A DNA stretch of 64,000 bases, taken from positions 291,221 to 355,220 of the forward strand of contig JBAZTH010000001.1 of the NCBI GenBank assembly GCA_041661965.1, written 5' to 3'. A program made the position numbers and the translations under genes. Below are positions 1,875 to 50,618 of the stretch, piece by piece (the first letter of the stretch is position 1; the number at the start of each line of letters is the position of its first letter). Origin of the DNA: Candidatus Margulisiibacteriota bacterium (lineage in GTDB: Bacteria > Margulisbacteria > WOR-1 > O2-12-FULL-45-9 > XYB2-FULL-48-7). The notes beneath the pieces were generated by a model. The model did no database searches and was not told the DNA's origin. It was given only the letters and a program-made list of their open reading frames with translations.

Positions 1875-2402
1875 ATGAAAAAGATCGTATCAGTGTCGTT
1901 AATAGTTATTAATTTGATTGTCCTTGGAAATTTGTCATTTGCCTCCGAATACCGTCTTGGCCCCTACGATACTCTTGAGCTTGAGGTAATCAATCACCCA
2001 GAACTAAAGACCAAGCAGACTGTTGCTCCCGATGGGCAGGTCTCTTTGCCGTTGTTAGGAGTTGTTTCGGTCGAGGGTCAGTCGCTAAAAGGCTTCCAAC
2101 GGTTTCTGACCAACAATTATTCCGCTTATCTTGATAAGCCGCAAGTTGTGATTGGCCTGACTCCAAAGCCGATTTATGTTGTACAATATGACTTGAAGAA
2201 GGATACTTGGGAAGTAAAGAAGGCCGGTTCGATTGATGAAGCGAAAGCCTATGCCAATCTCGATCCGACCTTGACGATTGAGCACGGCAATGTTTATAAG
2301 ATTACGATGGGGAGTAAGCCGGACTTCTGGGAAGAGAATTGGTACAAGGTTCTTACTGGCGCGGCGGTTGCAGTTGGGATATATGCGACGTTGAATAAAT
2401 AG
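1875..2402 (+). CDS. Small periplasmic polysaccharide-export protein (Wza-type Poly_export N-terminal domain)
   Basis: Signal peptide MKKIVSVSLIVINLIVLGNLSFA. YRLGPYDTLELEVINHPEL…VAPDGQVSLPLLGVVSVEGQSL…PQVVIGL matches the Poly_export motif (YRLGPGDVL…PDG…LP.G…G.T…P.V.V). Confidence 0.65.
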   Translation: MKKIVSVSLIVINLIVLGNLSFASEYRLGPYDTLELEVINHPELKTKQTVAPDGQVSLPLLGVVSVEGQSLKGFQRFLTNNYSAYLDKPQVVIGLTPKPIYVVQYDLKKDTWEVKKAGSIDEAKAYANLDPTLTIEHGNVYKITMGSKPDFWEENWYKVLTGAAVAVGIYATLNK

Positions 2403-2440
2403 GACCAAAACGATGAGGGCCTTAATTTAAGTGACCTAGT

Positions 2441-5125
2441 ATGAATATTGCCCAAATAGAAAAAAATATGCAAAAGCTTGTAAATTCCATACATAAGGAT
2501 AACTTTATCTATGAATTTCTCGAGGCATATGGGATACCAAAGGCATCTATCGCGAGACTTAAAAAAGGAGGATTAAACCTTTCGAAGGTTGAAGGCGAAA
2601 TATTATGGAAGAAGAAAGTATTCTTTAAACAATTGATAGGTGACCATCTCCACGAGACTATTGAAAGTATTAGAGAGAAAGAAAAAGCAACAAAACACAA
2701 TCCCCGCTTCATAATAGTAACCGACTTTATAACCTTACTTGCAATTGATACGAAAACCAACGATACACTTGATATCCCTATCCTTGAAATAGCAAGACAT
2801 TTTGACTTCTTTTTGCCCTGGGCTGGGATGGAAAAGGCTCGCCATCAAAACGAAAACCCCGCAGACGTAAAAGCAGCCGAAAGAATGGCAAAGCTATATG
2901 ATGAAATAAAACGAGAGAACCCAACTAAAACTCTGGGGGAGGCGCATAGCCTAAATGTCTTTCTTTCTCGACTCTTATTTTGCTTCTTTGCAGATGATAC
3001 TGATCTTTTCAAGAAAAATCAGTTTATTAACGCGATAAGTAGCCACACGCAGGTTGATGGTAGCGACCTACAAGCATATCTTGATAAATTGTTTGAGGTT
3101 CTTAATACAGAACCAGGAAAGCGGAAAAAGCTCCCTGCCTACCTTGAAGGGTTTCCTTTTGTTAATGGTGGTTTGTTTCGTAATAAATATGGTTTGCCTG
3201 TTTTTACAAGGCGAAGTCGACAAGAGATCATTAATTGTGGGCTGCTGGACTGGTCGGTTATTAATCCAGATATATTTGGTTCAATGATGCAGGCGGTTGT
3301 AACCCCAGAGCACCGTGGTGGGGTAGGAATGCACTACACCAGCGTTCCTAACATAATGAAGGTGCTTCGGCCTTTGTTCTTGGATGAGTTGAACGAAGTG
3401 CTTGACGTCAGCATGGGAAATCGCAAAAAACTTGAAGCATTATTGATTCGCGTCCAAAACATTAAGGTGTTTGACCCGGCCTGCGGCAGCGGGAATTTCT
3501 TGATTATCGCCTATAAGGAATTGCGAAGACTGGAAATGAAAATCTTTAGGGCTTTAAGTAGCCTGGCTTTTTCAGATATTCGATTGAGCAACTTTTATGG
3601 GATTGAACTGGATGATTTTGCCCACGAAGTGGCAATATTATCGCTATGGCTGGCAGAGCATCAGATGAATCAGGAATTCTTTAAATCTTTTGGAAGGGGA
3701 AAGCCTGCTTTGCCACTAAAGGAAATGGGGAATATTGTTCATGGCAATGCTGCCAAAATTGATTGGGAAGAAGTTTGCCCAAAAAGTACGGGGAAGGAAA
3801 TATACGTTTTAGGAAATCCGCCATATCAAGGCTCAAGGAAGCAAAATAAATCACAAAAAGACGACCTAGCATTGGTGTTTTCTGGTTTCTCAAAATATAA
3901 AGATCTTGATTATATTGCCATATGGTTTTATAAGGGAGCAAAGTATATACGAGAATCTGACGCTAAACTTGCGTTTGTTTCAACAAATTCTATTTGCCAG
4001 GGTGAACAGGTGTCTTTGATATGGCCCACGATATTCGGACTTGGTCTCCAGATATGTTTTGCTTATACATCTTTTAAATGGAAAAACAATGCAAGAGACA
4101 ATGCCGGGGTGACTGTGATTATTGTTGGCTTATCAACGGCAATAGCCCAAGATAAGTTCATATTTAGCGATTCTATCAAACATAAAGTGCATAACATTAA
4201 TGCATATTTAATTTCCGGAGAGAGCAACACATTTGTTTATTCCAGAACCACCCCCTTATCAGATATGCCAACAATGAATTTTGGAAACATGCCTGCTGAC
4301 GGCGGAAAGCTGTTGTTCACTACGGAGGAAATGAATGACTTTGTTTTAAAGGAACCTATTTCTAAAAAGTGGTTTAAGAAGCTAATTAACGCTCAGGAAT
4401 ATCTTAATGGTAGGGAGCGGTGGTGTCTTTGGTTGGAAGGAATAGCTAACAAGGAATTGCGTATGATGCCCAAAGTCTCGTCTGTTGTTAATTGTGTAAA
4501 GGAAATTAGAAAGAAATCATCCCGGCCACAACTGGCCAAAACCCCTCATTTGTTTGCTCAAATAACTCAGCCCCAAAATAAGAGTTGCATTATTGTTCCG
4601 AGGGTATCTTCGGAAAGCCGAAAGTATATTCCCATTGATTATCTTGATGGTGAAAACAAGGTTACAGATTCATTCTTTACTATTGTTACTGACCGGTTAG
4701 AAGTATTCTCTATTGTTACTTCTTACATGCATATGGTTTGGCTGGCCTACATTGGGGGTAAATTGGAAACAAGATATCAATACTCAAAGAATGTCGTTTA
4801 CAATACTTTTCCGATCCCCTTGATTTCCGTTAACCAAAAGAAGGAATTAGAGAAAAATGTTTACCGAATTCTAAAAGAAAGAGAAATGCATAGTGAAAAA
4901 ACACTCTCACAATTATATGATCCTGATAAGATGCCAGAAGGGTTGCGCGAAGCCCATCACCAGAACGATCTTGCAGTAGAAAGCTGCTATCGTAGCCAGC
5001 CCTTTGAAAGTGATGAAGAACGATTAGAATGTCTTTTCAAACTCTATGAGCAAATGATTGCAGATGAAAAGACCAAGGGGACTTTGTTTGAAGCAGAATC
5101 AAAAACCAAAAGAAAAAGGAAGTAA
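2441..5125 (+). CDS. MmeI-like gamma-class N6-adenine DNA methyltransferase with embedded target-recognition region, 894 aa (Type IIL/IIG-like)
   Basis: Motif I VFDPACGSGNFLI (about nt 3470–3510) and motif IV GNPPYQG (about nt 3815–3835). Size and N-terminus resemble the MmeI/PglX family. About 36 % GC. Confidence 0.75.
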   Translation: MNIAQIEKNMQKLVNSIHKDNFIYEFLEAYGIPKASIARLKKGGLNLSKVEGEILWKKKVFFKQLIGDHLHETIESIREKEKATKHNPRFIIVTDFITLLAIDTKTNDTLDIPILEIARHFDFFLPWAGMEKARHQNENPADVKAAERMAKLYDEIKRENPTKTLGEAHSLNVFLSRLLFCFFADDTDLFKKNQFINAISSHTQVDGSDLQAYLDKLFEVLNTEPGKRKKLPAYLEGFPFVNGGLFRNKYGLPVFTRRSRQEIINCGLLDWSVINPDIFGSMMQAVVTPEHRGGVGMHYTSVPNIMKVLRPLFLDELNEVLDVSMGNRKKLEALLIRVQNIKVFDPACGSGNFLIIAYKELRRLEMKIFRALSSLAFSDIRLSNFYGIELDDFAHEVAILSLWLAEHQMNQEFFKSFGRGKPALPLKEMGNIVHGNAAKIDWEEVCPKSTGKEIYVLGNPPYQGSRKQNKSQKDDLALVFSGFSKYKDLDYIAIWFYKGAKYIRESDAKLAFVSTNSICQGEQVSLIWPTIFGLGLQICFAYTSFKWKNNARDNAGVTVIIVGLSTAIAQDKFIFSDSIKHKVHNINAYLISGESNTFVYSRTTPLSDMPTMNFGNMPADGGKLLFTTEEMNDFVLKEPISKKWFKKLINAQEYLNGRERWCLWLEGIANKELRMMPKVSSVVNCVKEIRKKSSRPQLAKTPHLFAQITQPQNKSCIIVPRVSSESRKYIPIDYLDGENKVTDSFFTIVTDRLEVFSIVTSYMHMVWLAYIGGKLETRYQYSKNVVYNTFPIPLISVNQKKELEKNVYRILKEREMHSEKTLSQLYDPDKMPEGLREAHHQNDLAVESCYRSQPFESDEERLECLFKLYEQMIADEKTKGTLFEAESKTKRKRK

Positions 5126-5127
5126 TT

Positions 5128-7059
5128 ATGCCAGATATAGTTCATGTGACTTATTCACAAACAGGGCAAAGTTCTAAAACTAACGCTTTAGGCATGCGTG
5201 AAATGCAAGAGAAAGCATTCCAGTCAAGGGATGCTCAGTACTTGTTACTAAAAGCGCCTCCTGCCTCGGGTAAGTCGAGGGCATTAATGTTTATTGCCCT
5301 TGATAAGATTATGCATCAGGGGCTTAAAAAAGTGATTGTCGCGGTTCCAGAAAGGTCGATCGCGGGATCATTCAGTAAGACGAATTTAAAGGATTATGGA
5401 TACTTTGCCGATTGGGACCCAAATCCTAACTACAATCTTTGCACCCCCGGGCTCGATGGGAGCAAAACAAAAGTGCAAGCTTTTAAGAACTTTCTGGATA
5501 ATGATGAGAAGATTATGATCTGTACTCACGCAACGCTGCGTTTTGCCTATGAAGAAGTGGATGAATCAAGGTTCAACAATATTCTATTGGTTATAGATGA
5601 GTTCCATCATGTGTCGGCAGATTACGATAGCCGCTTGGGTGAGGTGTTGCGCTCAATTATGCAACATACAAGTGCTCATGTTTTTGCTATGACCGGCTCA
5701 TATTTTCGCGGAGACACTGTGCCTGTCCTCTTGCCAGAAGATGAGGCCAAATTTACTAAGGTAACTTATAACTATTATGAACAGCTAAATGGCTACATAT
5801 ATTTAAAATCGCTTGGTATTGGTTACCATTTTTATCAAGGCCAATATACTTCAGCCATAATGGATATATTAGACACAAACAAGAAAACTATTTTACACAT
5901 ACCAAACGTAAACTCTGGGGAATCGACTAAGGATAAGCATAATGAAGTCGATACTATATTAGATGCTATTGGGGAAGTTCAAAGAGTAGACCCCGACACA
6001 CAAGTTATATATGTGAAACGGCATGGAGACGGTAGAATACTTAAGGTTGCTGATCTGGTAAATGATAATCCAAGCGATCGAGACAAGATTATTACCTACC
6101 TCCGCAACATGAAAACACTTGAAGATATGGATCTAATAATTGCATTAGGCATGGCAAAAGAGGGTTTTGACTGGCCATTTTGCGAGCATGCATTAACTGT
6201 TGGCTATAGAGGTTCTTTGACAGAAATTATTCAGATAATTGGGCGTTGTACAAGAGATAGCAGCAATAAAAGCCATGCCCAGTTCACGAATTTAATCGCT
6301 CAGCCTGATGCCGCAGACGCTTTAGTAAAGCTATCTGTGAATAATATGCTGAAAGCTATAACGGCCTCTCTATTAATGGAGCAGGTATTGGCGCCAAACT
6401 TTAAGTTTAAAACCAAACTATCAGATGAGGACAAGTCCGCTCCTAGTGAAATCAAAATTAGAGGACTCAAGCTGCCAAGCTCAAAGAGAGTAAACGACAT
6501 AATTGAATCTGATTTGAATGATTTAAAAGCAACCATCTTGCAGGACGACACAATGTTGAAGGCAATGCCTGGTAATGTTGATCCTGAAGTAATCAATAAG
6601 GTGTTAATCCCCAAGATTATTAAGCTTAGGTATCCTGACTTGTCAGAAGAGGAGGCAGAAGAGGTTCGTCAGTATGTGGTTGTTGATTCCGCGATCAAAA
6701 CCAGCGAAATAAAGGATTCGGGGGGGAAAAGATTTGTCAGAATGGCTGGTCAATTTGTAAACATTGATGACCTTCATATAGATCTAATCGATAAGATCAA
6801 TCCTTTTCAAAAAGCGTTTGAAATACTATCAAAATCAGTAACGACAAGGGTTTTAAAGGTTATTCAAGATGCTATTGAGGCCACAAGAATTCAAATGACT
6901 ATGGAAGAAGCAGTAATACTCTGGCCGAAAATCAATGAATTTGTTAAAACATTCAATAGGCAGCCAGGTATCCAATCCTCGGACCCGTTAGAAAGAAGAA
7001 TGGCGGAAGGAATTATCTATTTAAAGGATCAAAAGCGAAGAAAGCAAAATGGACAATAA
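5128..7059 (+). CDS. SF2 (DEAD/DEAH-type) helicase/ATPase, 643 aa
   Basis: Walker A LLLKAPPASGKSRAL, motif II VIDEFHHV, motif III MTGSYFRGD, motif VI QIIGRCTRD. Starts 3 nt after the methyltransferase gene. Confidence 0.75.
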   Translation: MPDIVHVTYSQTGQSSKTNALGMREMQEKAFQSRDAQYLLLKAPPASGKSRALMFIALDKIMHQGLKKVIVAVPERSIAGSFSKTNLKDYGYFADWDPNPNYNLCTPGLDGSKTKVQAFKNFLDNDEKIMICTHATLRFAYEEVDESRFNNILLVIDEFHHVSADYDSRLGEVLRSIMQHTSAHVFAMTGSYFRGDTVPVLLPEDEAKFTKVTYNYYEQLNGYIYLKSLGIGYHFYQGQYTSAIMDILDTNKKTILHIPNVNSGESTKDKHNEVDTILDAIGEVQRVDPDTQVIYVKRHGDGRILKVADLVNDNPSDRDKIITYLRNMKTLEDMDLIIALGMAKEGFDWPFCEHALTVGYRGSLTEIIQIIGRCTRDSSNKSHAQFTNLIAQPDAADALVKLSVNNMLKAITASLLMEQVLAPNFKFKTKLSDEDKSAPSEIKIRGLKLPSSKRVNDIIESDLNDLKATILQDDTMLKAMPGNVDPEVINKVLIPKIIKLRYPDLSEEEAEEVRQYVVVDSAIKTSEIKDSGGKRFVRMAGQFVNIDDLHIDLIDKINPFQKAFEILSKSVTTRVLKVIQDAIEATRIQMTMEEAVILWPKINEFVKTFNRQPGIQSSDPLERRMAEGIIYLKDQKRRKQNGQ

Positions 7060-8242
7060 TAGGATACTGGAAGAAATATTCAACAATGACCCGTTGGGTT
7101 TATTAAATATTAAGCCAACGTCTTCGCCACAGCAGAGTAAGGATGAAAGACTCATTGCGACATTTTATAAAATTAATGAATTCTATGAAAAGAACAACCG
7201 TGAGCCCCAACAAGATGGGAGTATCCAAGAATATCAATTATATGCAAGATTAAAGGCCATTAGGGACGACCGGTCAAAAAGTAAAATGCTTGTTCCTTAC
7301 GATAACCATCTTCTGCTGAATGTCGAGCATAAACAAATTAATACATTGGAGGATGTTGTAAAAGATGATGTGTTAGGGCTGCTTGAAGATGATTCCGAAG
7401 GCTTATTTAATATTAAGCACATTGGGGTCCAGGATGAAAGAGCGAGCGCTGATTTTGTTGCCCAGCGGAAACCATGTAAAGACTTCGATAAATACGAGCC
7501 AATATTTAGGGCGGTCCAGGAGGATTTGGCGCAGGGTAAGAGAAAAATAATCATGTTTAAGGAAGATGTCCTTCGGGAGGGCGGCTTTTATGTCCACAAT
7601 GGCGTTTTGCTCCAATTGGAAAAAGTTGAATTTAAGCAAGGGGTGGCCCCGTTCAAAAGTGGGGATAGATTACGGAAGGATGGCAGGACAAGAGTAATAT
7701 TTGAAAATGGAACAGAGTCCAATATGCTCTATCGCTCCCTATATAAAGCTTTGCTTGCAAATGGAAGGGCAGTATCAGAAAACGTAGATCGTGTAAATGA
7801 GAGCTTTGTTGAGAGATTTAGTAATATTACTAATGAGGACGAAGCGGCCGGTTATATCTATATACTCAAGTCGAAAAGCGAAAAAAAGGAGATCAGGGAA
7901 ATAAAACATCTCTATAAGATAGGATATTCAAAGACAACAGTTGAGGATAGGATTATCAATGCTAATCAGGACCCAACATATTTAATGGCTGATGTGCAAG
8001 TTCTTATGGTCTTTAAGTGTTTCAACCTTAACCCCCAGAAGCTTGAAATGTTGCTACATAACTTTTTTGGTAAATCCTGTTTGAATATTGATGTGTTTGA
8101 TGCGGTTGGTATTCGGCATACTCCAAGAGAATGGTTTATTGCCCCTTTGTCAGCAATTGAACAAGCAATAAAACTTATAATAAGTGGTGAAATAGTTAAT
8201 TATAGATATGATGGGGACAACGAGATTATCATTAATCGGTAA
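7049..8242 (+). CDS. Protein with C-terminal T5orf172 (GIY-YIG-related) domain, 397 aa. Putative nuclease/effector subunit.
   Basis: C-terminal GYIYILKSKS…LYKIGYSKTTVEDRI…PREWFIAPLSAIEQAIKLI matches the T5orf172/MUG113 pattern (GyvYvl…KIGyT…R…EWF). Overlaps the helicase gene by 11 nt. Confidence 0.6.
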   Translation: MDNNRILEEIFNNDPLGLLNIKPTSSPQQSKDERLIATFYKINEFYEKNNREPQQDGSIQEYQLYARLKAIRDDRSKSKMLVPYDNHLLLNVEHKQINTLEDVVKDDVLGLLEDDSEGLFNIKHIGVQDERASADFVAQRKPCKDFDKYEPIFRAVQEDLAQGKRKIIMFKEDVLREGGFYVHNGVLLQLEKVEFKQGVAPFKSGDRLRKDGRTRVIFENGTESNMLYRSLYKALLANGRAVSENVDRVNESFVERFSNITNEDEAAGYIYILKSKSEKKEIREIKHLYKIGYSKTTVEDRIINANQDPTYLMADVQVLMVFKCFNLNPQKLEMLLHNFFGKSCLNIDVFDAVGIRHTPREWFIAPLSAIEQAIKLIISGEIVNYRYDGDNEIIINR

Positions 8243-8429
8243 TAAAAACGACCAAATTAGGTTTAATGTTGGATGTAGAAGAAGGTGCAGGGTTGAAAAT
8301 ACTTTTATTGTGCTGGCTTTGATGGAGAGTTCCCTGTTTTTATGGTGAAGACTACTCCGTCACTATCCTCATCACGTTCTTTACTAAGAATGTGAGCTGT
8401 TTTTGATCGCAAAATGACTAATTATTAAA

Positions 8430-9374
8430 TCAGCTGGAAAAGGGCAATGCAACCATATGTTTGCTTAAAGGAGTGCCTTCGTCGTGCAATGAAAATTGTT
8501 CATATTCCCATTTCCCATTTTTACATATACTACTTTTTGTTAAGCTGAATGATTTATGATGCCCGCTATTTCTAAAGAACCCTTTTCGCTTATTTTGCTT
8601 AAGTAATATCTGTCTAATAGGGGTTGCAATATTGTATTTAAATGAGCCTTTATCGCATTGGAAAACACAGGCCTTAAAAGCTCCTAGTAATAAATCGGTT
8701 ATTTGTAATAGATGTGCGCGATTTTGGTCGGAGCAATCCGGGCTTTTGTGATTGCTCAAAATTGGAATAATATCCATGCTATGATCGAAATCAATAAAAG
8801 CTTCTTTATCGGGATGTAAGCGACCAATAATTCGTTTCTTATCGAGAGGCCGGCTCCAGCCTATTCCATCCGTGTAAAAACCAGTCAGCTTAACTTTGTG
8901 ATCATCGCCGAACAAAAAATGAAGGCCGCTTTTTAGTCCAATTCGTAAAAGCGTTTCAACTTTCCTTGTATATATTTCTGTCTTATCAGCTGAGCCGTAA
9001 TAAAGCGAACTCATTGTTGATGTGTTCCTTTTAAAAAATAGAACAAATTTACAACATGGGGGAATAATACCCCAGAGATGCTTATTGTGTCTTTTACTGC
9101 GTAAAGCATCTTCCATTAGTATTAAAATATCTTTTGCCGTTTTATGCTTAATATTTTCTGTTGTTCCAGTTAAATCATTGTAATGCAGTTTGCTGTCATT
9201 GTTATACTTAGCTCTGATCTTGCCTATCTGTGAGAGGATTATAGGTTTTATTCTGGTTGGAATAAATAAAAAAGCATGTATTACGTGGTTATCTTTGCTT
9301 TCATCGTGATAAACCTCATATTCGTCCCACTCGGGGAAAATATTGTACGGTTTTATATTGAATAATGTGTCCAT
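8430..9374 (-). CDS. DUF3800-family protein
   Basis: N-terminal EVYHDESKDNHVIHAFLFIP resembles the DUF3800 'YIDESG…' start. ATG at 9374 preferred over the TTG at 9398. AT-rich, like the neighbouring restriction-like genes. Confidence 0.5.
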   Translation of the reverse strand: MDTLFNIKPYNIFPEWDEYEVYHDESKDNHVIHAFLFIPTRIKPIILSQIGKIRAKYNNDSKLHYNDLTGTTENIKHKTAKDILILMEDALRSKRHNKHLWGIIPPCCKFVLFFKRNTSTMSSLYYGSADKTEIYTRKVETLLRIGLKSGLHFLFGDDHKVKLTGFYTDGIGWSRPLDKKRIIGRLHPDKEAFIDFDHSMDIIPILSNHKSPDCSDQNRAHLLQITDLLLGAFKACVFQCDKGSFKYNIATPIRQILLKQNKRKGFFRNSGHHKSFSLTKSSICKNGKWEYEQFSLHDEGTPLSKHMVALPFSS

Positions 9375-9723
9375 AAAGATAAAGCCCCACTTTTTCAAGT
9401 CTTTCTTTGTGTAGCTAGAACTAGCTAGCAGGCATCATTTTCCCTTCTCCCAGCTTCTCCATTGTAGCATTTTTCCGCCTATACCCTGTCAAGGGGTCGC
9501 TCGCAGATATACATCAATAAAAATCTAATGTAGCTCGCGCCCCTCTGCTCCAGTCGTCCTCGACTCGCCCTCACATTAAATCAATGAAGCATTATAGTTC
9601 GGGCTTGCTCGTCCTCTTTTCGCGCCCTCCACCGATCCGCTCGTTATCCCTCGCGGATCGGCTCCGGGTGACAGGGGCGAAAAAATGCTATTGGCATGGC
9701 ATCTTTTTTGGGAGGTGTCGCTT

Positions 9724-10251
9724 ATGGTACGTGTCGTTGGCTTCATTGGTTCCCGCTCCTTGCCCGCTTCATTTTCTCCTCTTGTTTCCTCGTCCGTTTC
9801 CCTCTTTTTGTCCCGTGGCTTCCGGGTTGCTTCCGGTGGCGCTTTGGGGGCTGATTCATTCGCCCTCTCTGCCTTGCTCCGGCAGGGGGCCGCTTCTTCC
9901 GGGGTGCTATTCTCCGCTTGGCAGTCCGCTTCTGGGTTCCCTGCTTCGGTTCGTCCCCAGGTCAGCCGGTTCCTTGCTTCCGGCGGCCAGGTCGTTTGGG
10001 GTTCTGCTTCGCCCGGCGCGTCCCGCCAGCAGGCTGTCTCCGCGCTTTTGGGCCGCAACCGGCGGCTGGCCTCTTCCTGTTCGGTTCTGGTGGCTTTCCT
10101 CTTCGGTCCTTCCCGCGGCTCCCTTTTTACGGTGCGTCAGGCGGTTAGCCGTGGCGTTCCGGTGGTGGTTTTCCTTTGCGGGGGCGGGGCTGCTTTGCCC
10201 CCTGATCTAGCCAGGCACTGTTTTATTTTCAACAAAAAGGAGGTGCTTTAG
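9724..10251 (+). CDS. Minimal DprA/Smf-like Rossmann-fold protein, 175 aa
   Basis: VVGFIGSRSLP…RVASGGALGADSFALSAL…GRNRRLASSCSVLVAF…RGSLFTVRQAVSRGVPVVVF aligns with the DprA core (VGSR…SGxAxGID…RNRiisgLs…sGsLiTa). RBS GGGAGGTG 8 nt upstream. Coding strand strongly A-depleted. Confidence 0.5.
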   Translation: MVRVVGFIGSRSLPASFSPLVSSSVSLFLSRGFRVASGGALGADSFALSALLRQGAASSGVLFSAWQSASGFPASVRPQVSRFLASGGQVVWGSASPGASRQQAVSALLGRNRRLASSCSVLVAFLFGPSRGSLFTVRQAVSRGVPVVVFLCGGGAALPPDLARHCFIFNKKEVL

Positions 10252-10430
10252 TGGCTATTTCAGTTTTGTCCCCATGTCTGCAGTGCGGCAGCTTACTGCC
10301 AGGAGTTAGATGCCGTCCTCACAATCGGACCAGATGCGCCCGGTTTCTTAACTATGTTCAGTCTCTTAGCAAAAACCGCGCCCACCACATTCTGATCAAA
10401 GAATTGAAAGAATTAATTATCAAAAATTAA
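10251..10430 (+). CDS. Possible small Cys/His-rich (zinc-ribbon-like) protein, 59 aa, translationally coupled via TAGTG
   Basis: AGGAGG 8 nt upstream of the GTG; CLQCG…C…H…C. Weak support. Confidence 0.3.
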   Translation: MAISVLSPCLQCGSLLPGVRCRPHNRTRCARFLNYVQSLSKNRAHHILIKELKELIIKN

Positions 10431-10439
10431 GATTGATCA

Positions 10440-10473
10440 TTGTTTGGTTATTGCGTCTTGGTTATTGGTTATT
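10440..10473 (+). promoter_or_regulatory. Copy C of the repeated leader element
   Basis: TTGTTTGGTTATTGCGTCTTGGTTATTGGTTATT, followed by AAAAAAGGAGG and the ATG at 10494. Confidence 0.6.
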
Positions 10474-10493
10474 TAAAAAAGGAGGTGTTTCAG

Positions 10494-10667
10494 ATGAGAA
10501 GATGTTCTGTTTGCCGGGCATTGCTGACCCCTTGCAACGAGGGGCTTGATCATATCGGCTTCGAGCCGTACACGCTCAACCGGGTGGTCTTCATTTGCCA
10601 GGGTTGCTTGAACTCGATCCAAAATCAGATCGAATATGGCATATCTTATCAATATGCCGAGGTTTGA
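10494..10667 (+). CDS. Small cysteine-rich protein (CxxC…CxxC), 57 aa
   Basis: RBS AGGAGG then ATG; MRRCSVCRALLTPCNEGLDH…FICQGCLNSI; followed by a terminator. Confidence 0.5.
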   Translation: MRRCSVCRALLTPCNEGLDHIGFEPYTLNRVVFICQGCLNSIQNQIEYGISYQYAEV

Positions 10668-10678
10668 TCCCATCAGGC

Positions 10679-10717
10679 CCGCTTCCTTCCACCAAAGGGA
10701 AGCGGGTCATTTTTTTG
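10679..10717 (+). terminator. Rho-independent terminator
   Basis: Hairpin CCCGCTTCCcTTccaccAAAGGGAAGCGGG followed by TTTTTTT. Confidence 0.7.
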
Positions 10718-10753
10718 GTGATTATCTCTTGGTTATTTAGTGGTCATTGAATT

Positions 10754-10787
10754 TTGTTTGGTAATTGTTTCTTGGTAATTGGTTATT
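10754..10787 (+). promoter_or_regulatory. Copy D of the repeated leader element
   Basis: TTGTTTGGTAATTGTTTCTTGGTAATTGGTTATT, then AAAAAAGGGAG and the ATG at 10809. Confidence 0.6.
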
Positions 10788-10808
10788 TAAAAAAGGGAGT
10801 TGGTAAAA

Positions 10809-11207
10809 ATGGGTGAGTATATTAAAAACATTGCGACCGGGGAAGAGATAAAGATCGGGGTCATGGATAATTGCTTTTTTAGTCGGGCGGAGATCAAGGA
10901 GTGGCTGTTCGATCCCGATTGGGTCGGTTGGTATGCCGGCAAGGAAGAGGCCGGGACGCTTGAGTCGTTTTACGACAATCCCGGTACTTTATACGATGGG
11001 ATTCCGGGGTTGATCCGGAAAGATTTCGCGATCCTTGTCCCTTTGGGCGATTTGGAAGTTTGCGATCATCGCAAAGTTGATGTTTGGAAGAAAGGGAAGC
11101 GCGGGACTGGCTATCAATACACGGTTGAGTGCGAATTTAAGGGGAAGAACGAGCTGTGGGCGGCAGTTGGGCAATTTTTGCTTGCGATTGTTGCGACACT
11201 TTATTGA
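10809..11207 (+). CDS. Hypothetical protein, 132 aa
   Basis: ORF directly downstream of leader copy D with an RBS. No recognisable motif. Confidence 0.45.
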   Translation: MGEYIKNIATGEEIKIGVMDNCFFSRAEIKEWLFDPDWVGWYAGKEEAGTLESFYDNPGTLYDGIPGLIRKDFAILVPLGDLEVCDHRKVDVWKKGKRGTGYQYTVECEFKGKNELWAAVGQFLLAIVATLY

Positions 11208-14738: not shown

Positions 14739-15659
14739 ATGCGCATCTATCTTAAAGATTCCCATTGGTTGGAATACTTGAGATATCGACGACTTTCCCG
14801 GTTGTCTCGATCGACTCACGAGAAAATCCGGATCGAGATTGGTTTGTATTTCAGTTATTTAAAGAAAGTCGGCATAAAGTCAATAAATGAAGCAAACGAG
14901 GAAATGGTCAGTGATTATTTGCTCGATTGTAAAAACAGTAAATATTGGCTGACTGGACGGAAAAGAAGCGTTTTTACCATTGCTTATAAGCGGATGCTTC
15001 TTTGGAATTATTACGAATTCCTGCAAAAAAATGGCTACTACCCGGTTAATCCCTTTAGGAATATCCCCCCTTTATTGTTACCGAAGAAAATCCCTCCTTA
15101 TTTATCAACGCGGCAGATAATCAAGCTCTTTAAGGTGGCGGTTAGAAACAAAAAGCGGCCGACCCAATTTCAAATAAGATTGCGGGCTTATATGGCTTTA
15201 TTGTTTTTCTACGGACTGACAAACCACGAAGTGTTCAGGATAAGAATTAAAGACCTAGATTTCCTTAATGGGGTTATTCTTATTCGCCGGACAAGAACTC
15301 ATGATAGACGTGCTTTGCCCTTATTCTCCCCGATTACAAGCTGGTTGCAGGATTATATTGAAATCCGACCCAAAAGAAGATCTCCCAACTTATTTCAATG
15401 TGTAAAAAGAAAAAGTCATTACAGCTATTTTAGTTCAAGGGGCGATTTACTGCATATATCAAGGAAACTTCATTTTCCGGTGAGTGCCTCAATTATTCGA
15501 AACACCTTTTTTGTAATTATGAGCAATAACCGGGTCGAGCACCGGGTTATTCAGGCGATCGTCGGTTCCCACACGATAAGAACAATAAAAAAACGAGCAA
15601 GCAAGAGTCTCGCCGGCAAAAGAGAAACGGTTGAGAAATATTTGCAGGGCATTACATGA
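14739..15659 (+). CDS. Tyrosine recombinase (phage-integrase family), first of a trio. C-terminal motifs atypical.
   Basis: Integrase-like core (…LFFYGLTNHEVFRIRIKDLD…, LHISRKLHFPVSASIIRNTF) but no canonical LGH…T..Y box. Stop overlaps the next start (ATGA). Confidence 0.55.
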   Translation: MRIYLKDSHWLEYLRYRRLSRLSRSTHEKIRIEIGLYFSYLKKVGIKSINEANEEMVSDYLLDCKNSKYWLTGRKRSVFTIAYKRMLLWNYYEFLQKNGYYPVNPFRNIPPLLLPKKIPPYLSTRQIIKLFKVAVRNKKRPTQFQIRLRAYMALLFFYGLTNHEVFRIRIKDLDFLNGVILIRRTRTHDRRALPLFSPITSWLQDYIEIRPKRRSPNLFQCVKRKSHYSYFSSRGDLLHISRKLHFPVSASIIRNTFFVIMSNNRVEHRVIQAIVGSHTIRTIKKRASKSLAGKRETVEKYLQGIT

Positions 15660-16549
15660 GGTTAAATAAATGCGTAAGGTCCTATATGTCGGGGAACAAG
15701 CATATTAAAAGGCTATCGATAAACACCATGGTTTTTCAAAAACGAGTTCTTGCTAAATATCTTCCCGATGTTCTGACTGTCGAAGACATTACGGTCAAAA
15801 TGATTCAAACGATATTTGATTTGATGAAAAAGGAAAGGGTTTCGCCGGCGACCATTCGATCTCGCTATGCGATAATAATGGCGTTTCTTAATCATTGCTA
15901 TCGCCACAAACACCTGAAATTCAACCCTTCTTTTACTATTAAAAAAATCAGGAAATATCGAGCCCAAAAAATCCCTTTGAATGGGCTGGCATTGCGCAAG
16001 ATGTTGGACGTTAATATTAACTATCGTTATTGCCATGATTTTCAATATTATCGGAATAAAGCAATTATTGGCCTGCTGATTTATACTGGCTTGAGAGTCG
16101 GAGAGGTTGATCGTCTGCGGAAAGACGATGTTCATGACGACTATGTAAATATAATTGCCGGGAAAGGGCGGTTTGATCGGGTCGTGCCTATTCAAGAGCC
16201 GCTGATTTCCTGGCTAGCCAATTACTTAAAAAGCCGTAAACACTTTCATTCAAACCGTCTCTTTATCGGTCTGTTCAAAAAATCGCAATTCAATCGCAAT
16301 ACCGTAAACATAATTGTTAAAAATGTGGCGCGCGCGGCTAAAATTCGAAAGAAAGTATATGCCCATTTGTTGCGGCATTCGTTTGCCAGCCAAATGTTAA
16401 AAGGCCGGGTCGATCTGGAAGACTTACGGCAAATAATGGGGCATCAGAACCTTGAAATGACCGCGATGTACGCAAAACCAGATTTTGAAATGGTGAAGGA
16501 AGCGTTATTATCAAACCCAATGGTAAAGATATTAGGAGGTGAAAAATGA
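15656..16549 (+). CDS. Tyrosine recombinase (XerC/D-like), second of the trio
   Basis: GLRVGEVDRL…AHLLRHSFASQMLKGRVDLEDLRQIMGHQNLEMTAMYAK (R…HxxR…GH…Y). Confidence 0.75.
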   Translation: MRLNKCVRSYMSGNKHIKRLSINTMVFQKRVLAKYLPDVLTVEDITVKMIQTIFDLMKKERVSPATIRSRYAIIMAFLNHCYRHKHLKFNPSFTIKKIRKYRAQKIPLNGLALRKMLDVNINYRYCHDFQYYRNKAIIGLLIYTGLRVGEVDRLRKDDVHDDYVNIIAGKGRFDRVVPIQEPLISWLANYLKSRKHFHSNRLFIGLFKKSQFNRNTVNIIVKNVARAAKIRKKVYAHLLRHSFASQMLKGRVDLEDLRQIMGHQNLEMTAMYAKPDFEMVKEALLSNPMVKILGGEK

Positions 16550-17940
16550 TTGCGATCAAACAGGTGTGGTCGAAAAGGAAAATCATTGAAGGGATAAGGC
16601 TTTTATTTGTTGAACATGGGACGATAACTCCCCGTGAAATACGAAGAGATTATGCTCGTTTATATAATGCCACCCAGAAGCGTATTTATTTTGGCGGCTG
16701 GCTGAAAGCGGTTGAAGCTGCGGGCTACGCGGATAAATACGAAAGGATCCTGGATAAAGCACGCAGGCAAGCTTTAAATCGGCGGAAAAATACTAGGGAC
16801 AAGTGGAGTAAGGAAATAATTCAGGAGAAAATCCGCGAGATTCATGCTACCGGACAGTCATTGTATGGCAAATACATCAAAAAGTCTCATTATAATTTAT
16901 TGCATGCGGCTCACAGTAAGTTGTACTTTGGAAGTTGGAAAGCGGCGGTTGAATCAATAGGAGTTAATTACAGCAAATATGAGCGAGGATATCGCAAAAA
17001 GAAAAAAAGATTTGTCTATGTTATCAATGACCGAAAATACCGCGAGTTTCTTAAGGCTTGGCAGAAACAACTTGTTTTACATAATTATCATCGGGTCACG
17101 ATAATTAAAAAGCTGAGAGACGCGCAGAAATTTATTGGATTCTTTGTGAATAAACGTCAAATAAAGTCGTTGGCCGAACCCGATGTTAGAAAGTATTTAT
17201 GCTCAAAAGAGATCAAGCGATTGTCGGCTAATACTGTGGGGGGTACCATTCTTTCTCTCCGTCAATTTATGGAATTTTGCGTCAAAAACGGAGTGGCCAA
17301 AAACAATCCGTTTGATGAGATCGAACGCCCCCAATATAAACTTAGTGGCTCTGCAGCGTTAAGTGAACAGGAATTGGCGCGTTTTGTCGGTGCAATTGAA
17401 GAATTGCCTTTTAATGAATTGCTGAGAATACGGGGACGATTAATGATTGAGTTGATCGTATATTGTGGTTTAAGACAGCAGGAAGTGACCTCGCTAAAAC
17501 GGCAAGACATTGATCTGGTTGAAATGACTTTGAAAGTGGAGCAGGGGAAGCGAAAAAAGGACCGGCTTATTCCAATAAACGAGGCGTTATCTGGAACAAT
17601 AACAAAATATCTGAAATTGAGAGGCCATAACTATGGTCGCTATTTGATAACCAATCGAATGAACAATCGACAGATTAATTCGATTGTGTTTTATAATCTA
17701 TTTCGTTTGCTTTCAATAAAAGCGGGGTTAAAGATTGTTGTTACCCCTCATCTTTTACGGACCACCTTTGCTACGATCTTATTCGATCGGGGGGCGCCCA
17801 TCAGGGCGATACAAGAGCTTATGGGGCATACATTTGTCAACACAACTGCAAGATATATTCAGGTCTCAATTGGTTACTTGAGAAAGGAGATGAGTAAGCA
17901 CCCTTTATTGGCCGCGAGCCTCGATAATAAGAAGTCATAA
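16546..17940 (+). CDS. Tyrosine recombinase, third of the trio, with a ~170-aa N-terminal extension carrying an internal duplicated motif
   Basis: C-terminal GLRQQEVTSL…PHLLRTTFATILFDRGAPIRAIQELMGHTFVNTTARYIQ. N-terminal repeats LYNATQKRIYFGGWLKAVEAAGY and LLHAAHSKLYFGSWKAAVESIGV. Confidence 0.75.
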   Translation: MIAIKQVWSKRKIIEGIRLLFVEHGTITPREIRRDYARLYNATQKRIYFGGWLKAVEAAGYADKYERILDKARRQALNRRKNTRDKWSKEIIQEKIREIHATGQSLYGKYIKKSHYNLLHAAHSKLYFGSWKAAVESIGVNYSKYERGYRKKKKRFVYVINDRKYREFLKAWQKQLVLHNYHRVTIIKKLRDAQKFIGFFVNKRQIKSLAEPDVRKYLCSKEIKRLSANTVGGTILSLRQFMEFCVKNGVAKNNPFDEIERPQYKLSGSAALSEQELARFVGAIEELPFNELLRIRGRLMIELIVYCGLRQQEVTSLKRQDIDLVEMTLKVEQGKRKKDRLIPINEALSGTITKYLKLRGHNYGRYLITNRMNNRQINSIVFYNLFRLLSIKAGLKIVVTPHLLRTTFATILFDRGAPIRAIQELMGHTFVNTTARYIQVSIGYLRKEMSKHPLLAASLDNKKS

Positions 17941-18761: not shown

Positions 18762-19664
18762 ATGACAAAAATATTTAGTAAAGGATTGCTTTTGACGGCG
18801 ATATTGATTGGGGGTGTGCTTTTTGGGGGAATGGCGATGGGAGGATGTGGAAGCTCATTAAGTTCAAGTACGAGAAGTGTTTACTGTTTTCCTGATTGGA
18901 CACCTGATGGGAAGATCCTTTGTGTAAAAGCTAAGGTTTCTACTTCTACGGGTGCGGGGTCGAATCCAAGTGTTGATTCCAGCGCGGAATATTTTATAAC
19001 AATTATGGATATCAATGGAAGTAATGAGGCGGATTTGAGGCGAATTAACTCTTATGGAGTTGCTGTTATGTCGCCATTAGGGAATTATATCGCTTATTCT
19101 GAAGGATCGAAAATAAAAGTTATAAAAGCAAATGGGGATGATTTGCATACTATTGGTCTTAATGATGGGTTTGAAGTAATTGGTCTTGATTGGGGTTCCG
19201 ATGAATCAAGTATTATTTATTATGCGGGGAAATCGCCGAATTTTGAACAAGCTGTTGTCGGCATTGATGGAGCAGGTAAGGCAATTATTTCAACAAACGG
19301 CGGATCGATTGCTTGGAGATATGGAGACAGGATTGTTATGCAAAAGCCGATTTCAACGGAAGTCAATAGAGTTGTTGCCATTGATAGGAGAACTTTAAAT
19401 GAAATATCATCTTACCCTAATGTTGTTGGAGGCAATTTCAACGTTAACAGAACAAGCACAAACGAGGTAGTGTTTTTTGGGGAAAAAATAGAAAAGTTTG
19501 ATTTAACCGCGCCAAGTATGCCCCCTGTGGTGATAATAAACAGAAGCGATATTTATGATATTAAACTATCTCCCGATGGTCAGAAAATTGTTGGAGATAA
19601 TGTTAACAAAATCGGTATTTATTTAATAAATATAGATGGCACGGGGTTTGAACAATTGAGATGA
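18762..19664 (+). CDS. Lipoprotein with PD40/TolB-like β-propeller repeats
   Basis: Lipobox AMGGC. Repeats FPDWTPDGKILCV and IKLSPDGQKIVGD. Stop overlaps the start of the giant gene (ATGA). Confidence 0.6.
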   Translation: MTKIFSKGLLLTAILIGGVLFGGMAMGGCGSSLSSSTRSVYCFPDWTPDGKILCVKAKVSTSTGAGSNPSVDSSAEYFITIMDINGSNEADLRRINSYGVAVMSPLGNYIAYSEGSKIKVIKANGDDLHTIGLNDGFEVIGLDWGSDESSIIYYAGKSPNFEQAVVGIDGAGKAIISTNGGSIAWRYGDRIVMQKPISTEVNRVVAIDRRTLNEISSYPNVVGGNFNVNRTSTNEVVFFGEKIEKFDLTAPSMPPVVIINRSDIYDIKLSPDGQKIVGDNVNKIGIYLINIDGTGFEQLR

Positions 19665-22600
19665 AAAAGCTTCTGTTAATGGTTTTTTTCTGTGTATTAA
19701 CTTTAGTGCAAGCTGCAATCTCTGACGATGCGGCTTGGATAAATCTTAATAGTAGAACAGAAGGGACCGCTACATATAAGGATTATCTTTTTATCCTTGT
19801 CCATGGCATTAATGGAAGTAGCCAACATTTTAATGGCCAGGATGATCGAGATAAGGGTTTGCGGCTTTTGCAGCAGTTGCGAGACGACCTTCATTTGGAC
19901 GGGCATATCTTTGCCTATTCATTCAGCGAGAAAAGCGGAAGCAACTTTACCAGAGTGCGCGAGTTTGCGGATAGGACTTATAATAACTCAGCTTCATATG
20001 TTGATGAGAATGGCAAGCCTGTTTCTATGGGTGGAAAATGTTGGTTGGACAAAGCAAGAGAGGATTATAAGAGATGGTATGCACGAACCCACCCCGAATA
20101 TTCAAGAGATGAAAATAAGTGGGAATCTGTTCCCGATTCAATTGTTCCCAAAAAATATATTATCCTCACTCACTCGATGGGAAACATGGCGGCAAGATTA
20201 TATATTTACTCAAAAGATTTATTGGGCGAGGATTTGTATAAGAATGACGTCGCGAAAGTTGTGTACATCGCTCCGCCATTTACGGGCAGTGATTTGGCAT
20301 ATTTAGGGATGGTGCCGCAGGGCATATTTTGGGATCTTCAATTGTGGTCTAAAGCCAATGAATATAATGTTCTGTGGGAAGCGTTGTTGAAAAACCCGAC
20401 TAATTTTGCCCTTGATCCCCGAAAGACCTACAAGATCGCCAAGGAATATGCTTATTGGACGTTGAATGGGCCAGTCATGCTGGATAATGTGACTGCTCAA
20501 ATTGGAATTAAAGGAGCTAGCTTTCAATTAAATATTAATGAGCTAATTCATACGGAAGAGAGACCAGGTGGTGCGTCATTAGTTAAAGGGTCGGGAGCTT
20601 GTTATCAGGATCCAGGATTATACGAATTAATGCCGGAGATGATGATGGGGGTCTTTTTCCCAAAACTCCTTGACGCGAAACTGGCTGACGATGGCAACGA
20701 ACCCCTCTATAGTGTGGTCTACGGACAGGGGTCCCCGCTACCTAATGTAAGAGATTCGGCAATTGGGGGGATCGTTACGCAGGGGATAAAATATTCTTTG
20801 AGTGATGTTAACCGCTCGAACCTGATTGCCGGTGTCAAAAATCTTTCCGGGACGATAACAACTACTCCTGGTGAGTGGGGAAAGGTCTTTGGCGCAGGAA
20901 AAAATGTATTTGATGAGATTTCCGACTCCGCAGAGAATGGGAAATTAAGCTTTTATAATGGGTTTATGGGTGAGCTGTTGACTGTATTTGGCTCGGGGAA
21001 TTTTGCTAAATTACCAACCGAACAGGCGAAATTCTTGGCCTTAATCCAAAGCAATCCGGCTTTTGTCTTTTCCGATGATGGGGATAGCGCGGTGCCGGTT
21101 GATAGCGCAAAGGGGCTATATCAGGGGAAATCAACACGGGCCTTGCGAAACGCCAACTTTTATCCCGTTTTACTTAAAAGTGGATTTGATGATTATTTGA
21201 AAACGCAATTCCCAGGTCAATTTGAAGTGGTTGTCGCGGCCTATTACTTAAGCACGCAATTTGTTCCGGAGCCCGCGAAGACACCGATTGCAATTGGTTG
21301 CCAATATGGGCTGTTATTGTCTTTTATGGAAAGGGTAAATGCTTTTACGCCTGAACTGCAGGCCACAACTTGGTCGCATACTAATACCATGTTAAGACAG
21401 TACGATGTAATCGAAAAAGCAATTTTAGATACAGAAGCTATTTTTACTGTTAATGATTTGCAAACGACTGCTACTAATGACGCTAACACTTTAGAGGCGA
21501 AAACGGTTAAAGTTTTTACCACAAGCGTAGTGGTGCCGAGCGGTTACCACTCTGTTCAAGTTAAAAGCGCGGTAGAAAACCGAAATCCAACCGGACTGAC
21601 TAATCTGCCGATTCCAATGACTCTCGATGGCCAACGAATGTATGTAACGCAGATGACTGTGACTAAGCCGCCAAAGCGAATCGCTGGGAAGCTTAATTAC
21701 CTCATTCCCAGGTTGATGAAACAATTCGAATATTCATTTAATTTTGCCGCCTGGAAGCCGATAACTGGTGTCGACCAAGAAACGGGAGAATTTGAATTAG
21801 ATGATCTGCCCTTTGCCGAAGGGCAAAATATACTTGCTATCCGTTCCGAGAACGGGGTTGGGATTAAATCCCACCAACTCCTTAAGATCATCCTCAATAC
21901 CATTCCGATGCAGCCGAGCCAGTTTAAGCCTCTGCCGGAATATTACGTTGCCACTGCCAATCCCGAGATCTCGGTTGAGTTCAATAAATCGGAATATACC
22001 GGGGATTACGATTCGGAGAAAATTACGATCAAAGGGATGACCTTTGACGGAGAAGAAGTAGCCCCGCAGGTTGAATCGAGCATGGAAGCCTACCACCCCT
22101 GGGCTAAAGCAAGTTATAAAGCCAATGGCTTAAGTGATGGGGAGCATAATGTTGCCGTCAGAGCGGAATCAAATGTCGGGGTTGCCCAGGGGCTCTGGAC
22201 ATTTTATGTCGATACTACCGCTCCGACGATCTCGATCGAACCCTTAGCCCCATATAGCCCGCGCGGACCAACGACGATTCGCTATACCGTTTCCGATGAA
22301 GTTTCTCCCAACCTCCGCTTTGTCCGCTGTGATCTCTACGATAAGAATGATACCCTGGTAACTACCATTGCGACCGCTGACTCTCTCTCTAAAGGCGAAA
22401 ACTATTTTACTCTTGATCCTCGATCCCTTGATGTCTCTCTTCTCGATGGCAGTTACAAAATTAAGATTAAAGCTTTTGATCTGGCCGGTAACGTTGCCGT
22501 TGCCGAAACGCCGTTAATTATTGACGCTACGCCGCCAAAGGTTGGGCCAGTCGCTTTGACCCCAAACCCCATGACCTCAAATACCAACGAATTAAAAATG

Positions 22601-35322: not shown

Positions 35323-35508
35323 ATGGCAAAAGAGCAAATTATTTACAATATGACTGAGTTGGCGAAAGAGCTTAAGGTTACGCGGCAAGCAATTTATAAG
35401 TGGATAAAGAAGGGTTGGGTTAAACCAAAAAGGGATTATCGTGATTATCCGGTATTTACCGAAGCTGATGTTAAGAAAATTATGAAATGGAAATCAGCAA
35501 TAAAATGA
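35323..35508 (+). CDS. Small HTH DNA-binding protein (excisionase/MerR-like; possible recombination directionality factor), 61 aa
   Basis: MAKEQIIYNMTELAKELKVTRQAIYKWIKKGWVKP; stop overlaps the recombinase start (ATGA). Putative TTGACA promoter at 35284. Confidence 0.55.
   Translation: MAKEQIIYNMTELAKELKVTRQAIYKWIKKGWVKPKRDYRDYPVFTEADVKKIMKWKSAIK

Positions 35509-47346: not shown

Positions 47347-50607
<3,261 letters not shown>

Positions 50608-50618
<11 letters not shown>

Follow-up and report, generated by a model that had tools for sequence, protein, structure and literature searches.

An almost adenine-free DprA-like gene behind a hairpin leader in mobile elements of Margulisiibacteriota

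We analysed a 64,000-nucleotide stretch of DNA (hereafter the window) from a Candidatus Margulisiibacteriota bacterium (assembly GCA_041661965.1, contig JBAZTH010000001.1, positions 291,221 to 355,220). Near its left end, the + strand carries an islet with hardly any adenine (A). The islet is the coding body of one translated gene (9724–10251) for a minimal DprA/ShosA-like protein, and this gene is the first of an establishment/recombination module in an integrative mobile element of the Margulisiibacteriota host. A structured leader precedes it and small zinc-ribbon open reading frames (ORFs) follow. The loss of A turned out to be a family trait, and we tentatively relate it to early expression from incoming single-stranded DNA (ssDNA). 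A preliminary description of this DNA, made from the sequence alone, mentioned neither the family-wide bias nor the promoter-like hairpin upstream.

The gene lies on the + strand behind a Shine-Dalgarno (SD) sequence, GGGAGG, at 9710–9715. Its 175-residue product matched Pfam family PF02481 (DNA_processg_A) over residues 3–149 with 40.3 bits, against a gathering threshold of 29.6 (E 2.5e-10). In PADLOC it gave a partial match to the ShosA model (1.7e-7), limited to the Rossmann domain (profile positions 117–258 of 303), and the PsyrA model was matched as well. A profile of the family searched against the PDB matched the solved ShosA chains. An AF2 model built from 33 homologues had a pLDDT of 92.2 and a pTM of 0.87. 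Its best Foldseek match was again ShosA (8zva; E 7.6e-10, TM 0.73), and the DprA proteins of H. pylori, R. palustris and S. pneumoniae were also found (probability 1.0 to 4ljk, 4ljr, 3maj and 3uqz; TM 0.66–0.74). The comparison with the H. pylori and S. pneumoniae structures that the preliminary description had proposed therefore bears out its assignment of this frame to DprA. The same list included YpsA (SLOG), LOG proteins, RCL and ADP-ribose-binding TRPM domains. The conserved DprA motifs GSR, GxAxGxD, RNR and SxGS...T are present in the protein, and no catalytic LOG motif is evident in it.

The protein is a Rossmann core only, without SAM and winged-helix domains, and it failed the NCBIfam dprA equivalog model (TIGR00732) with 25.9 bits against a cut-off of 191.15. 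The predicted fold and the motifs place it in the DprA superfamily, but not as the DprA of competence. With DprA/Smf (PF02481; 3MAJ, 3UQZ, 4LJK; Foldseek TM 0.69–0.74) it shares the Rossmann-like DNA-binding fold and the motifs; it differs in being reduced to this 175-residue core, in being carried by mobile elements in multiple copies per genome, and in its amino-acid composition and nearly A-free gene. Ten amino acids can be encoded without A (F, L, S, C, W, P, R, V, A and G), and they make up about 88% of the protein. ShosA, from the ShosTA defence system and akin to PsyrA of PsyrTA, is the best match in both sequence and structure (PADLOC and PDB). Unlike these antitoxin genes, the window gene stands alone ahead of recombinase genes. 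Neither a ShosT phosphoribosyltransferase (PRTase), nor PsyrT, nor any other toxin gene was found among the neighbours in the window and the related loci, so the gene is not part of a ShosTA system. ShosA binds ssDNA and RecA (PMC12961424), and by homology the window protein may likewise be an ssDNA-binding RecA mediator.

The depletion itself is extreme. Between 9724 and 10210 the + strand contains 21 A in 487 nt (4.3%), against 161 C, 158 T and 147 G. In 200-nt windows over the 64 kb, A averages 27.0% with a standard deviation of 5.4%; all eight of the lowest-A windows fall in this region, and neither C, G nor T drops below 8% at any place. The core of the islet (9725–10204, + strand, ~4% A), in effect a T-free template strand, extends over ~0.48 kb, from the ATG at 9724 to ~45 nt short of the stop codon at 10249–10251. 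The preliminary description had been right about the depletion, but its figure of ~0.8 kb was too large: 9400–10430 takes in ordinary flanks, with 9400–9720 A-poor to a moderate degree only and the zinc-ribbon ORF at 10251–10430 of normal composition. Composition here has to be judged against the strong codon bias of core genes. In the host's rpoB and rpoC (window 47346–54759), A makes up 3.3% and 2.3% of four-fold sites in a window that is 27% A overall. Since these genes too are A-poor at four-fold sites, it is codon positions 1 and 2, not third positions, that are diagnostic at the window locus, and in the gene A falls to 3.7% at position 1 and 5.6% at position 2, against ~30%.

Within the core, A is retained at M1, D44, Q54, Q89, Q102, N112, T136, Q139 and D161. 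It is also retained in the C-terminal tail, which overlaps the ribosome-binding site of the next gene. Elsewhere A has given way to any other base, with T at synonymous sites and G or C at others. No stop codon, on whichever strand, can be formed without an A on the + strand, and so long frames stay open across the islet: 9584–10210 and 9918–10148 on the + strand and 9576–10058 on the − strand, none of which gave a family match, and a further + strand frame, 9685–10251, that overlaps the depleted region. The preliminary description had taken such overlapping frames for artefacts, correctly. An assembly artefact, which it had named as a possible refutation, is excluded by the presence of the same biased gene in hundreds of independent assemblies and in finished plasmids of cultured strains.

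We then asked how far the bias extends. In the protein database we found at least 219 homologues with 67–97% identity, all from assemblies labelled WOR-1, Saganbacteria or Margulisiibacteriota, and each is built to 75–94% from the ten amino acids whose codons can be A-free. Species-representative genomes yielded 38 loci when scanned, and a single genome often had several (individual loci are referred to below by L numbers). In L001–L025 the gene has 3–13% A and the flanks 21–34%. Averaged over 23 loci, the A fraction drops from ~0.2 to 0.03–0.10 exactly at the start codon and returns to 0.25–0.33 in the next genes. Codon choice in the related loci follows the same rule: AGY serves for 26 of 618 serines (4%) in the gene and for 1910 of 5830 (33%) in flanking ORFs, AGR for 27 of 300 arginines (9%) as opposed to 1882 of 4296 (44%), and the four-fold-site A fraction is 0.01–0.06 compared with flank medians of 0.12–0.31. 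A-requiring residues are kept in the C-terminal tail and in 18 of 175 alignment columns, the conserved ones, which include M1, D44 of the GxD motif, N112 of RNR, T136, Q139 and D161. Across 510 kb of related Margulisiibacteriota loci, this is the sole gene with so strong a depletion of any base. More distant relatives from Marinamargulis (~40% identity), which have an ordinary promoter and no hairpin, are only mildly A-poor.

To look beyond this phylum we searched 1.84 billion representatives with a profile, which gave 714 relatives in all. Some are ordinary, with 46–65% of their residues from the ten-letter set, and many of the distant ones are extreme, with 93–99%; one extreme clade comprises 204 clusters and includes Methylolobus and Methylomicrobium. 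At the DNA level, the gene has 1.0–6.5% A in six metagenomic loci that have 17–26% overall. tblastn also located it in cultured bacteria, on finished plasmids of Nitrosococcus oceani, N. watsonii and N. halophilus as well as of Methylobacter, Methylocaldum and Methylomagnum. Those of N. oceani and Methylobacter confirm the depletion at the DNA level, and together with the metagenomic loci they give 1–8% A against 17–27%. The search of plasmids and phages that the preliminary description had recommended was thus productive for gammaproteobacterial plasmids but not for phages: tblastn of a distant homologue against phages gave no match, nor did blastn of 9400–10700 against plasmids and phages. 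The ssDNA-phage origin that it had offered for the skew is left without direct support.

In these distant elements the A-free state exceeds the gene. On plasmid A of N. oceani ATCC 19707 (L045), an A-free run at 8411–9600 comprises the leader, a second A-free gene and the DprA-like gene, and it stops within 25 nt of a hicAB pair of normal composition (L045 9628–10234). The second gene belongs to a family of ~120-residue proteins encoded directly upstream of the DprA-like gene (L039 5197–5544; L042 7616–7990; L045 8621–8986; L046 4577–4876). This family numbers 133 clusters from Methylococcales and Nitrosococcus, is unrelated to the DprA-like family, and has no Pfam match and no fold match in the PDB. 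In L040 the A-free unit ends at a terminator and so covers a whole short transcription unit. The extreme clades use GGGGG or GGGGT as SD, and in 6 of 9 loci the DprA-like gene starts with GTG. Since A is avoided in the SD, the leader and the start codon, the pressure must act per nucleotide on RNA or DNA, and not on codons or tRNAs; this rules out causes at the level of decoding, such as anticodon nucleases, A-site mRNA cleavage or tRNA supply.

Conservation in 23 loci, sharp borders limited to the gene, the synonymous choices and recurrence in distant clades together argue for selection and not accident. They show that selection acting on nucleotides has cleared A from the sense strand, where it stays only if a conserved residue needs it. 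The preliminary description had seen the islet as a recently acquired remnant of a mobile element; it is instead an intact, strongly conserved gene of a module, and its bias is a trait under selection in a family that crosses phyla. We found no report of adenine-free bacterial genes in the literature, and A avoidance of this kind is apparently an undescribed phenomenon conserved across phyla.

The surroundings of the A-free units in these distant elements gave further observations. In L040 a prophage-like region, on a contig of 433 kb, holds two identical A-free copies of the DprA-like gene 2 kb apart (6001–6594 and ~8120–8717), and an intrinsic-terminator-like hairpin follows the first. Genes found beside A-free units include one for a TadA-like deaminase in Methylolobus (L039 2710–3312), hicA/hicB on N. 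oceani plasmid A, and csrA (L041 4604–4795). These neighbours vary among elements, with no consistent partner, yet they are RNA- or nucleotide-directed.

Upstream of the window gene, alignment of the related loci revealed two conserved complementary segments ~170–250 nt apart. They form the long-range stem of a structured leader (9445–9723, + strand), with its left arm at 9465–9491 and its right arm at 9669–9690; an outer extension at ~9447–9454 (CTCCCAGC, + strand) pairs with the SD region. Predicted folding was strong for the − strand as DNA (−49.9 kcal/mol, z −4.3) and for the + strand as RNA (z −4.45). Over 19 non-redundant loci, 90.4% of cells were paired, 14 of 22 pairs changed on both sides and 42 cells were compensatory; none of 500 shuffles reached the observed pairing, and slid controls gave 45–65%. 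An Rfam scan of 9200–10900 at E≤1 gave no match. The preliminary description had suggested a structured non-coding function as one source of the skew, and this holds for the 280-nt leader, but not for the islet itself. Beside the right arm stands an inner hairpin (9632–9661, + strand; CCGATCCGC, loop TCGTTATCCCTC, GCGGATCGG) whose stem varies among loci and yet stays complementary (GCACATATGC/GCATATGTGC in L004, ACGCATCTGC/GCAGATGCGT in L005). Short hairpins with a (C/T)ATCC(C/T/A)T(G) loop recur in gammaproteobacterial leaders (L039 3400–4700; L042 7150–7520; L045 8150–8470), whereas the window leader has this inner hairpin as its one similar example. The ATCC-type motif may resemble the IncP-type nick consensus, ATCCTG/C.

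The left arm carries promoter-like elements on the − strand (9461–9492): a −35 element, TTGACA, at 9492–9487 and an extended −10 element, TGC-TACAAT, at 9469–9461. Of 23 loci, all have TAnnnT on the bottom strand, 22 have TGn and 14 have the complete TTGACA. The spacer is 20 nt in the window, with a 5-nt bulge at 9480–9484, and 19–20 nt with a bulge of 4–5 nt in general; in L017 it is 39 nt, an extra stem-loop being placed at the bulge. As a linear spacer neither length suits a duplex promoter, so the spacing fits only the folded strand. The right-arm sequence that faces the −10 element is not conserved. We considered a leftward duplex promoter for cargo genes, but this is ruled out by the upstream genes, 14 of 21 of which lie on the + strand and end at the hairpin, several being host genes such as carB and mutS. 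In the folded bottom strand, which is the template of the downstream gene, the left arm takes the place of the non-template strand. A polymerase on this strand would then run rightwards into the gene, starting near 9700.

This architecture has a precedent in the Frpo elements, single-strand promoters (Frpo/ssi) of the leading regions of conjugative plasmids (Masai and Arai 1997; PMC11541004). Both consist of a long imperfect hairpin that holds −35 and −10 elements in its stem, directly upstream of an ssDNA-handling gene whose template is the folded strand; the likeness is one of architecture. The window version differs in that its integrative elements are small and show no conjugation genes, that its −10 lies in an internal loop with an extended TGn, and that the gene downstream is purged of A. 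We know of no report of such a purge in F-like leading genes.

Recombinases nearby and homology in related loci confirm the mobile-element context that the preliminary description had proposed. Homology with the closest locus, L001, begins at 9439, at the base of the hairpin, spans two zinc-ribbon ORFs and a 132-aa ORF, and resumes at a trio of tyrosine recombinases. The first zinc-ribbon ORF (10251–10430, + strand; 59 aa, CxxC...Cx7C) has a GTG start that overlaps the TAG stop of the DprA-like gene (TAGTG) and an AAGGAGG 8 nt upstream, and it is kept 3' of that gene in more than 20 loci; the coupling that had been thought possible from the sequence is thereby supported. Its product has no Pfam, NCBIfam or PADLOC match and may be a recombination directionality factor or a regulator. 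The second zinc-ribbon ORF (10494–10667, + strand; 57 aa) is followed by an intrinsic-terminator-like hairpin (10676–10708, + strand), and the segment 10494–10708 is conserved in L001, L002, L008, L011, L021 and L023–L025. The 132-aa ORF of the same module (10809–11207, + strand) is 98% identical in L001 and 58–63% in L021 and L023, and has no family match. A 51-nt direct repeat (TTGTTTGGTWATTG...CTTGGTWATTGGTTATTTAAAAAAGG) stands before the ORFs at 10494 and 10809. Its two copies, at 10432–10482 and 10746–10796, probably serve the module as recurring operators or promoters.

The three tandem tyrosine recombinases form a RIT-like trio (14739–17940, + strand; Pfam Phage_integrase in all three). 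In L001 the homologous trio follows the module directly, and the trio is the module's recombinase partner in the window lineage. Between host genes and the module lies variable cargo (2441–9398; in the closely related L002, other DNA takes the place of the block 2402–9422), with an MmeI-like type IIG restriction-methylase, a DEAD/ResIII helicase, a T5orf172/MUG113 protein and a 322-aa ORF on the − strand. Further along the window, a giant ORF of 4567 aa (19661–33364) probably encodes a surface protein, in which bacterial Ig-like, FlgD-Ig and CHU_C domains are numerous; a large serine recombinase (LSR) is encoded at 35487–37295.

In 12 other loci the hairpin, the DprA-like gene and the zinc-ribbon gene are followed, in this order, by the gene of a 485-aa LSR with Resolvase, Recombinase and Zn_ribbon_recom domains, to which the nearest NCBIfam models are CcrB and XisF. 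The compact elements measure 2.65 kb and are bounded by ~218-nt inverted repeats of 78–100% identity that include the 3' end of the recombinase gene (for example L004 9504–9718/11931–12146 and L012 6747–6963/9114–9329; also L005–L007, L009, L010, L013, L015, L016, L018 and L020). Both repeat termini abut CCA, one of them being the 3' end of a tRNA gene for Tyr, Ile, Lys, Ala, Met or Leu, and the insertion lies exactly behind the CCA of the tRNA gene. Both insertion orientations occur: at tRNA-Tyr, the elements of L006 and L012 point opposite ways. Judging from these junctions, which it fits, the core dinucleotide would be a palindromic AT. The 2.65-kb unit appears to be an autonomous mini-element. 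Its LSR and tRNA 3'-end junctions recall other tRNA-targeting LSR elements (tycheposons, SCC-type ccr), from which it differs in its size of only 2.65 kb, its near-perfect 218-nt terminal inverted repeats and its palindromic AT core. We found no description in the literature of an element that pairs an LSR with DprA. The window copy differs again, with the tyrosine-recombinase trio in place of LSR and repeats: it has no downstream LSR gene, no ~218-nt inverted repeats and no tRNA-CCA junction. A scan of the window ORFs recognised no relaxase, type IV secretion system, oriT or rolling-circle Rep.

Why should such a gene dispense with A? We favour, tentatively and at slightly less than an even chance, an adaptation for early expression from incoming ssDNA, the T-free strand being the template. 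The 280-nt leader would fold in the single-stranded bottom strand into a long hairpin whose stem rebuilds a sigma-70-type promoter (TTGACA ... TGnTAnnnT) with its −10 element in an internal loop. From this, as from the Frpo promoters of plasmid leading regions, host RNA polymerase could transcribe the gene straight off the incoming strand. An A-free sense strand would then mean a thymine-free template and an adenine-free message, and would confer immunity by composition on the sole product needed at the single-strand stage, if T in an unpaired template or A in a transcript is a liability during entry. Candidate liabilities are DarT-type ADP-ribosylation of thymine, occupancy of the strand by protein, TAnnnT sequences acting as sigma-70 traps, and A-directed attack on RNA. 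We prefer the ssDNA-template explanation because it ties together the fold-dependent promoter, the ssDNA-handling product and a bias that is confined to whichever gene or genes come first; the mild A-poverty of the hairpin-less Marinamargulis relatives also speaks for it. Several points weigh against it. The ssDNA stage of the element is presumed, and neither a relaxase, an oriT nor a rolling-circle Rep was found in the window that would place the gene in a leading region. Related plasmids are typed as non-mobilizable in PLSDB. The stem does not discriminate between strands by its wobble pairs (8 G.T versus 7 A.C), and the same stem would form in RNA read through from upstream. The A-free relative in L043 lies behind a textbook duplex promoter, TTGACA-17-TATACT, and the co-transcribed zinc-ribbon and recombinase genes are not depleted. 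The idea that the purge serves an unstructured template was rejected, as the template, by predicted ssDNA folding energy, was not consistently less stable than controls. Finally, the thymine- or adenine-directed agent would be one from a list of candidates.

The main rival is an explanation at the level of RNA, which is possible, if doubtful. An A-free message would survive RNA-targeting agents that require adenine, such as HEPN RNases (Csm6/Csx1), most interferases of the MazF, HicA and ToxN types, mRNA ADP-ribosylation at GA or A-to-I editing. An anti-defence or repair protein could then be made while other transcripts are destroyed, and the single-strand promoter would only set its early timing. 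This would account for a trait that is independent of the type of promoter and of element (phage-like in L043, plasmids, integrative elements), that extends to leader, SD and start codon, that covers a whole short transcription unit up to the terminator in L040, and that includes a second, unrelated gene family; on N. oceani plasmid A, moreover, a HicA toxin gene lies directly downstream. There is also a precedent in the ACA-less messages that, as Suzuki and colleagues reportedly found in 2005, escape MazF. Such messages (MazF 'single protein production') and ALREX, the adenine-poor signal-sequence regions of vertebrate secretory mRNAs, are alike in that removal of a motif or base from coding sequence alters the fate of RNA. 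The former are engineered and motif-specific, however, and the latter eukaryotic and short, and neither is a natural purge of one base from a whole bacterial gene. Across loci, moreover, no RNase or toxin is a consistent partner. A persists in the stop codon and, for the Margulis clade, in the last 15 codons, where cleavage would yield non-stop messages; some interferases recognise A-free motifs, and a U-rich message stays sensitive to U-specific nucleases such as Cas13. This explanation stays close to the ssDNA-template one, and we favour the latter with modest confidence. It is also possible, though we lean against it, that mobile elements of at least two phyla keep 'three-letter' transcription units as a general and hitherto unrecognised immunity by composition. 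In such units adenine would be missing, as far as the genetic code permits, from the leader, the ribosome-binding site and the start codon as well as from one or two genes, whose proteins would fold from an alphabet of ten amino acids.

Other explanations look to the protein, to nucleotide supply or to the DNA. The fold search that returned YpsA (SLOG), LOG, RCL and the ADP-ribose-binding TRPM domains raises the idea that the protein, being related in fold to N-glycosidases and to binders of adenine nucleotides, has the adenines of single-stranded nucleic acid as its ligand or substrate, so that its own transcript must be free of substrate to avoid auto-repression or self-destruction. In line with this, the trait is confined to the DprA-like family and absent from neighbouring genes, and relatives of ordinary composition exist that could differ in activity. 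We consider it unlikely: the conserved motifs are those of DprA (GSR, GxD, RNR) with no evident catalytic LOG motif, the unrelated upstream gene of Gammaproteobacteria is equally A-free, and downstream genes on the same transcript contain A. Still less probable is nucleotide economy, by which transcription and complementary-strand synthesis would go on despite a shortage or corruption of ATP or dATP caused by host defences (ATP nucleosidases, RADAR, ShosT-like disturbance of purine metabolism). The depletion does act per nucleotide, untranslated parts included, and ShosA and PsyrA, the nearest relatives that have been characterised, are antitoxins to toxins of nucleotide metabolism (PMC11961720). 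But tRNA charging also needs ATP, so the message alone would be no help under severe depletion, and no ShosT-like phosphoribosyltransferase or other toxin lies beside the gene. We give slightly less credence again to a non-adaptive, local hypermutation of A, by retro-mutagenesis like that of diversity-generating retroelements (DGRs) or another strand-specific mutator, with purifying selection rescuing the essential codons. The replacement of A by any base superficially resembles DGR adenine mutagenesis, but we found no reverse transcriptase domain in the window ORFs scanned or the called genes of L039–L044 and no template/variable repeat pair for the gene, on which grounds DGR-type mutagenesis was rejected. 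The borders are also sharp to tens of nucleotides and match gene or transcript ends in unrelated elements, and the state is kept across phyla and host GC contents with 67–97% protein identity within clades. Least probable of all is restriction-site avoidance taken to its limit, one of the causes suggested in the preliminary description. It follows from the structure of recognition sites, as we reason, that an A-free strand lacks palindromic A:T-containing sites and sites adenine-methylated on both strands, and the cargo often encodes adenine-methylating restriction-modification systems (MmeI-like in the window, AlwI and D12 methyltransferases in L004). Protection of 0.5 kb is useless, though, when the rest of the element can be cleaved, and qualitatively the other genes of the same elements show no such depletion, so simple avoidance was rejected; nor, in one published account, are well-studied plasmid leading regions consistently depleted in such motifs (PMC13478746). 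The suggestion is thus left without direct support.

The family offers, in any case, a large natural set of folded proteins, 88–99% made of ten amino acids, as data on the evolution of proteins with reduced alphabets. Frpo-like single-strand promoters, here supported by covariation, would be extended beyond enterobacteria to an uncultured phylum and to tiny integrative elements, and the trait can be tested in cultured Nitrosococcus and Methylobacter strains that carry such plasmids, among them N. oceani ATCC 19707 (plasmid A, NC_007483, positions 2832–4129) and Methylobacter sp. YRD-M1. If our interpretation is true, a whole gene can have its protein composition overruled by selection on one kind of nucleotide, and a strong hazard acts on A in RNA or T in ssDNA as mobile DNA enters the cell. 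Three-letter units, if they are real, would let an establishment or anti-defence operon be expressed during attack on T in ssDNA or A in RNA or during ATP depletion, and scans for genes free of a single base would open a new route to early anti-defence genes and to the defences that they counter.

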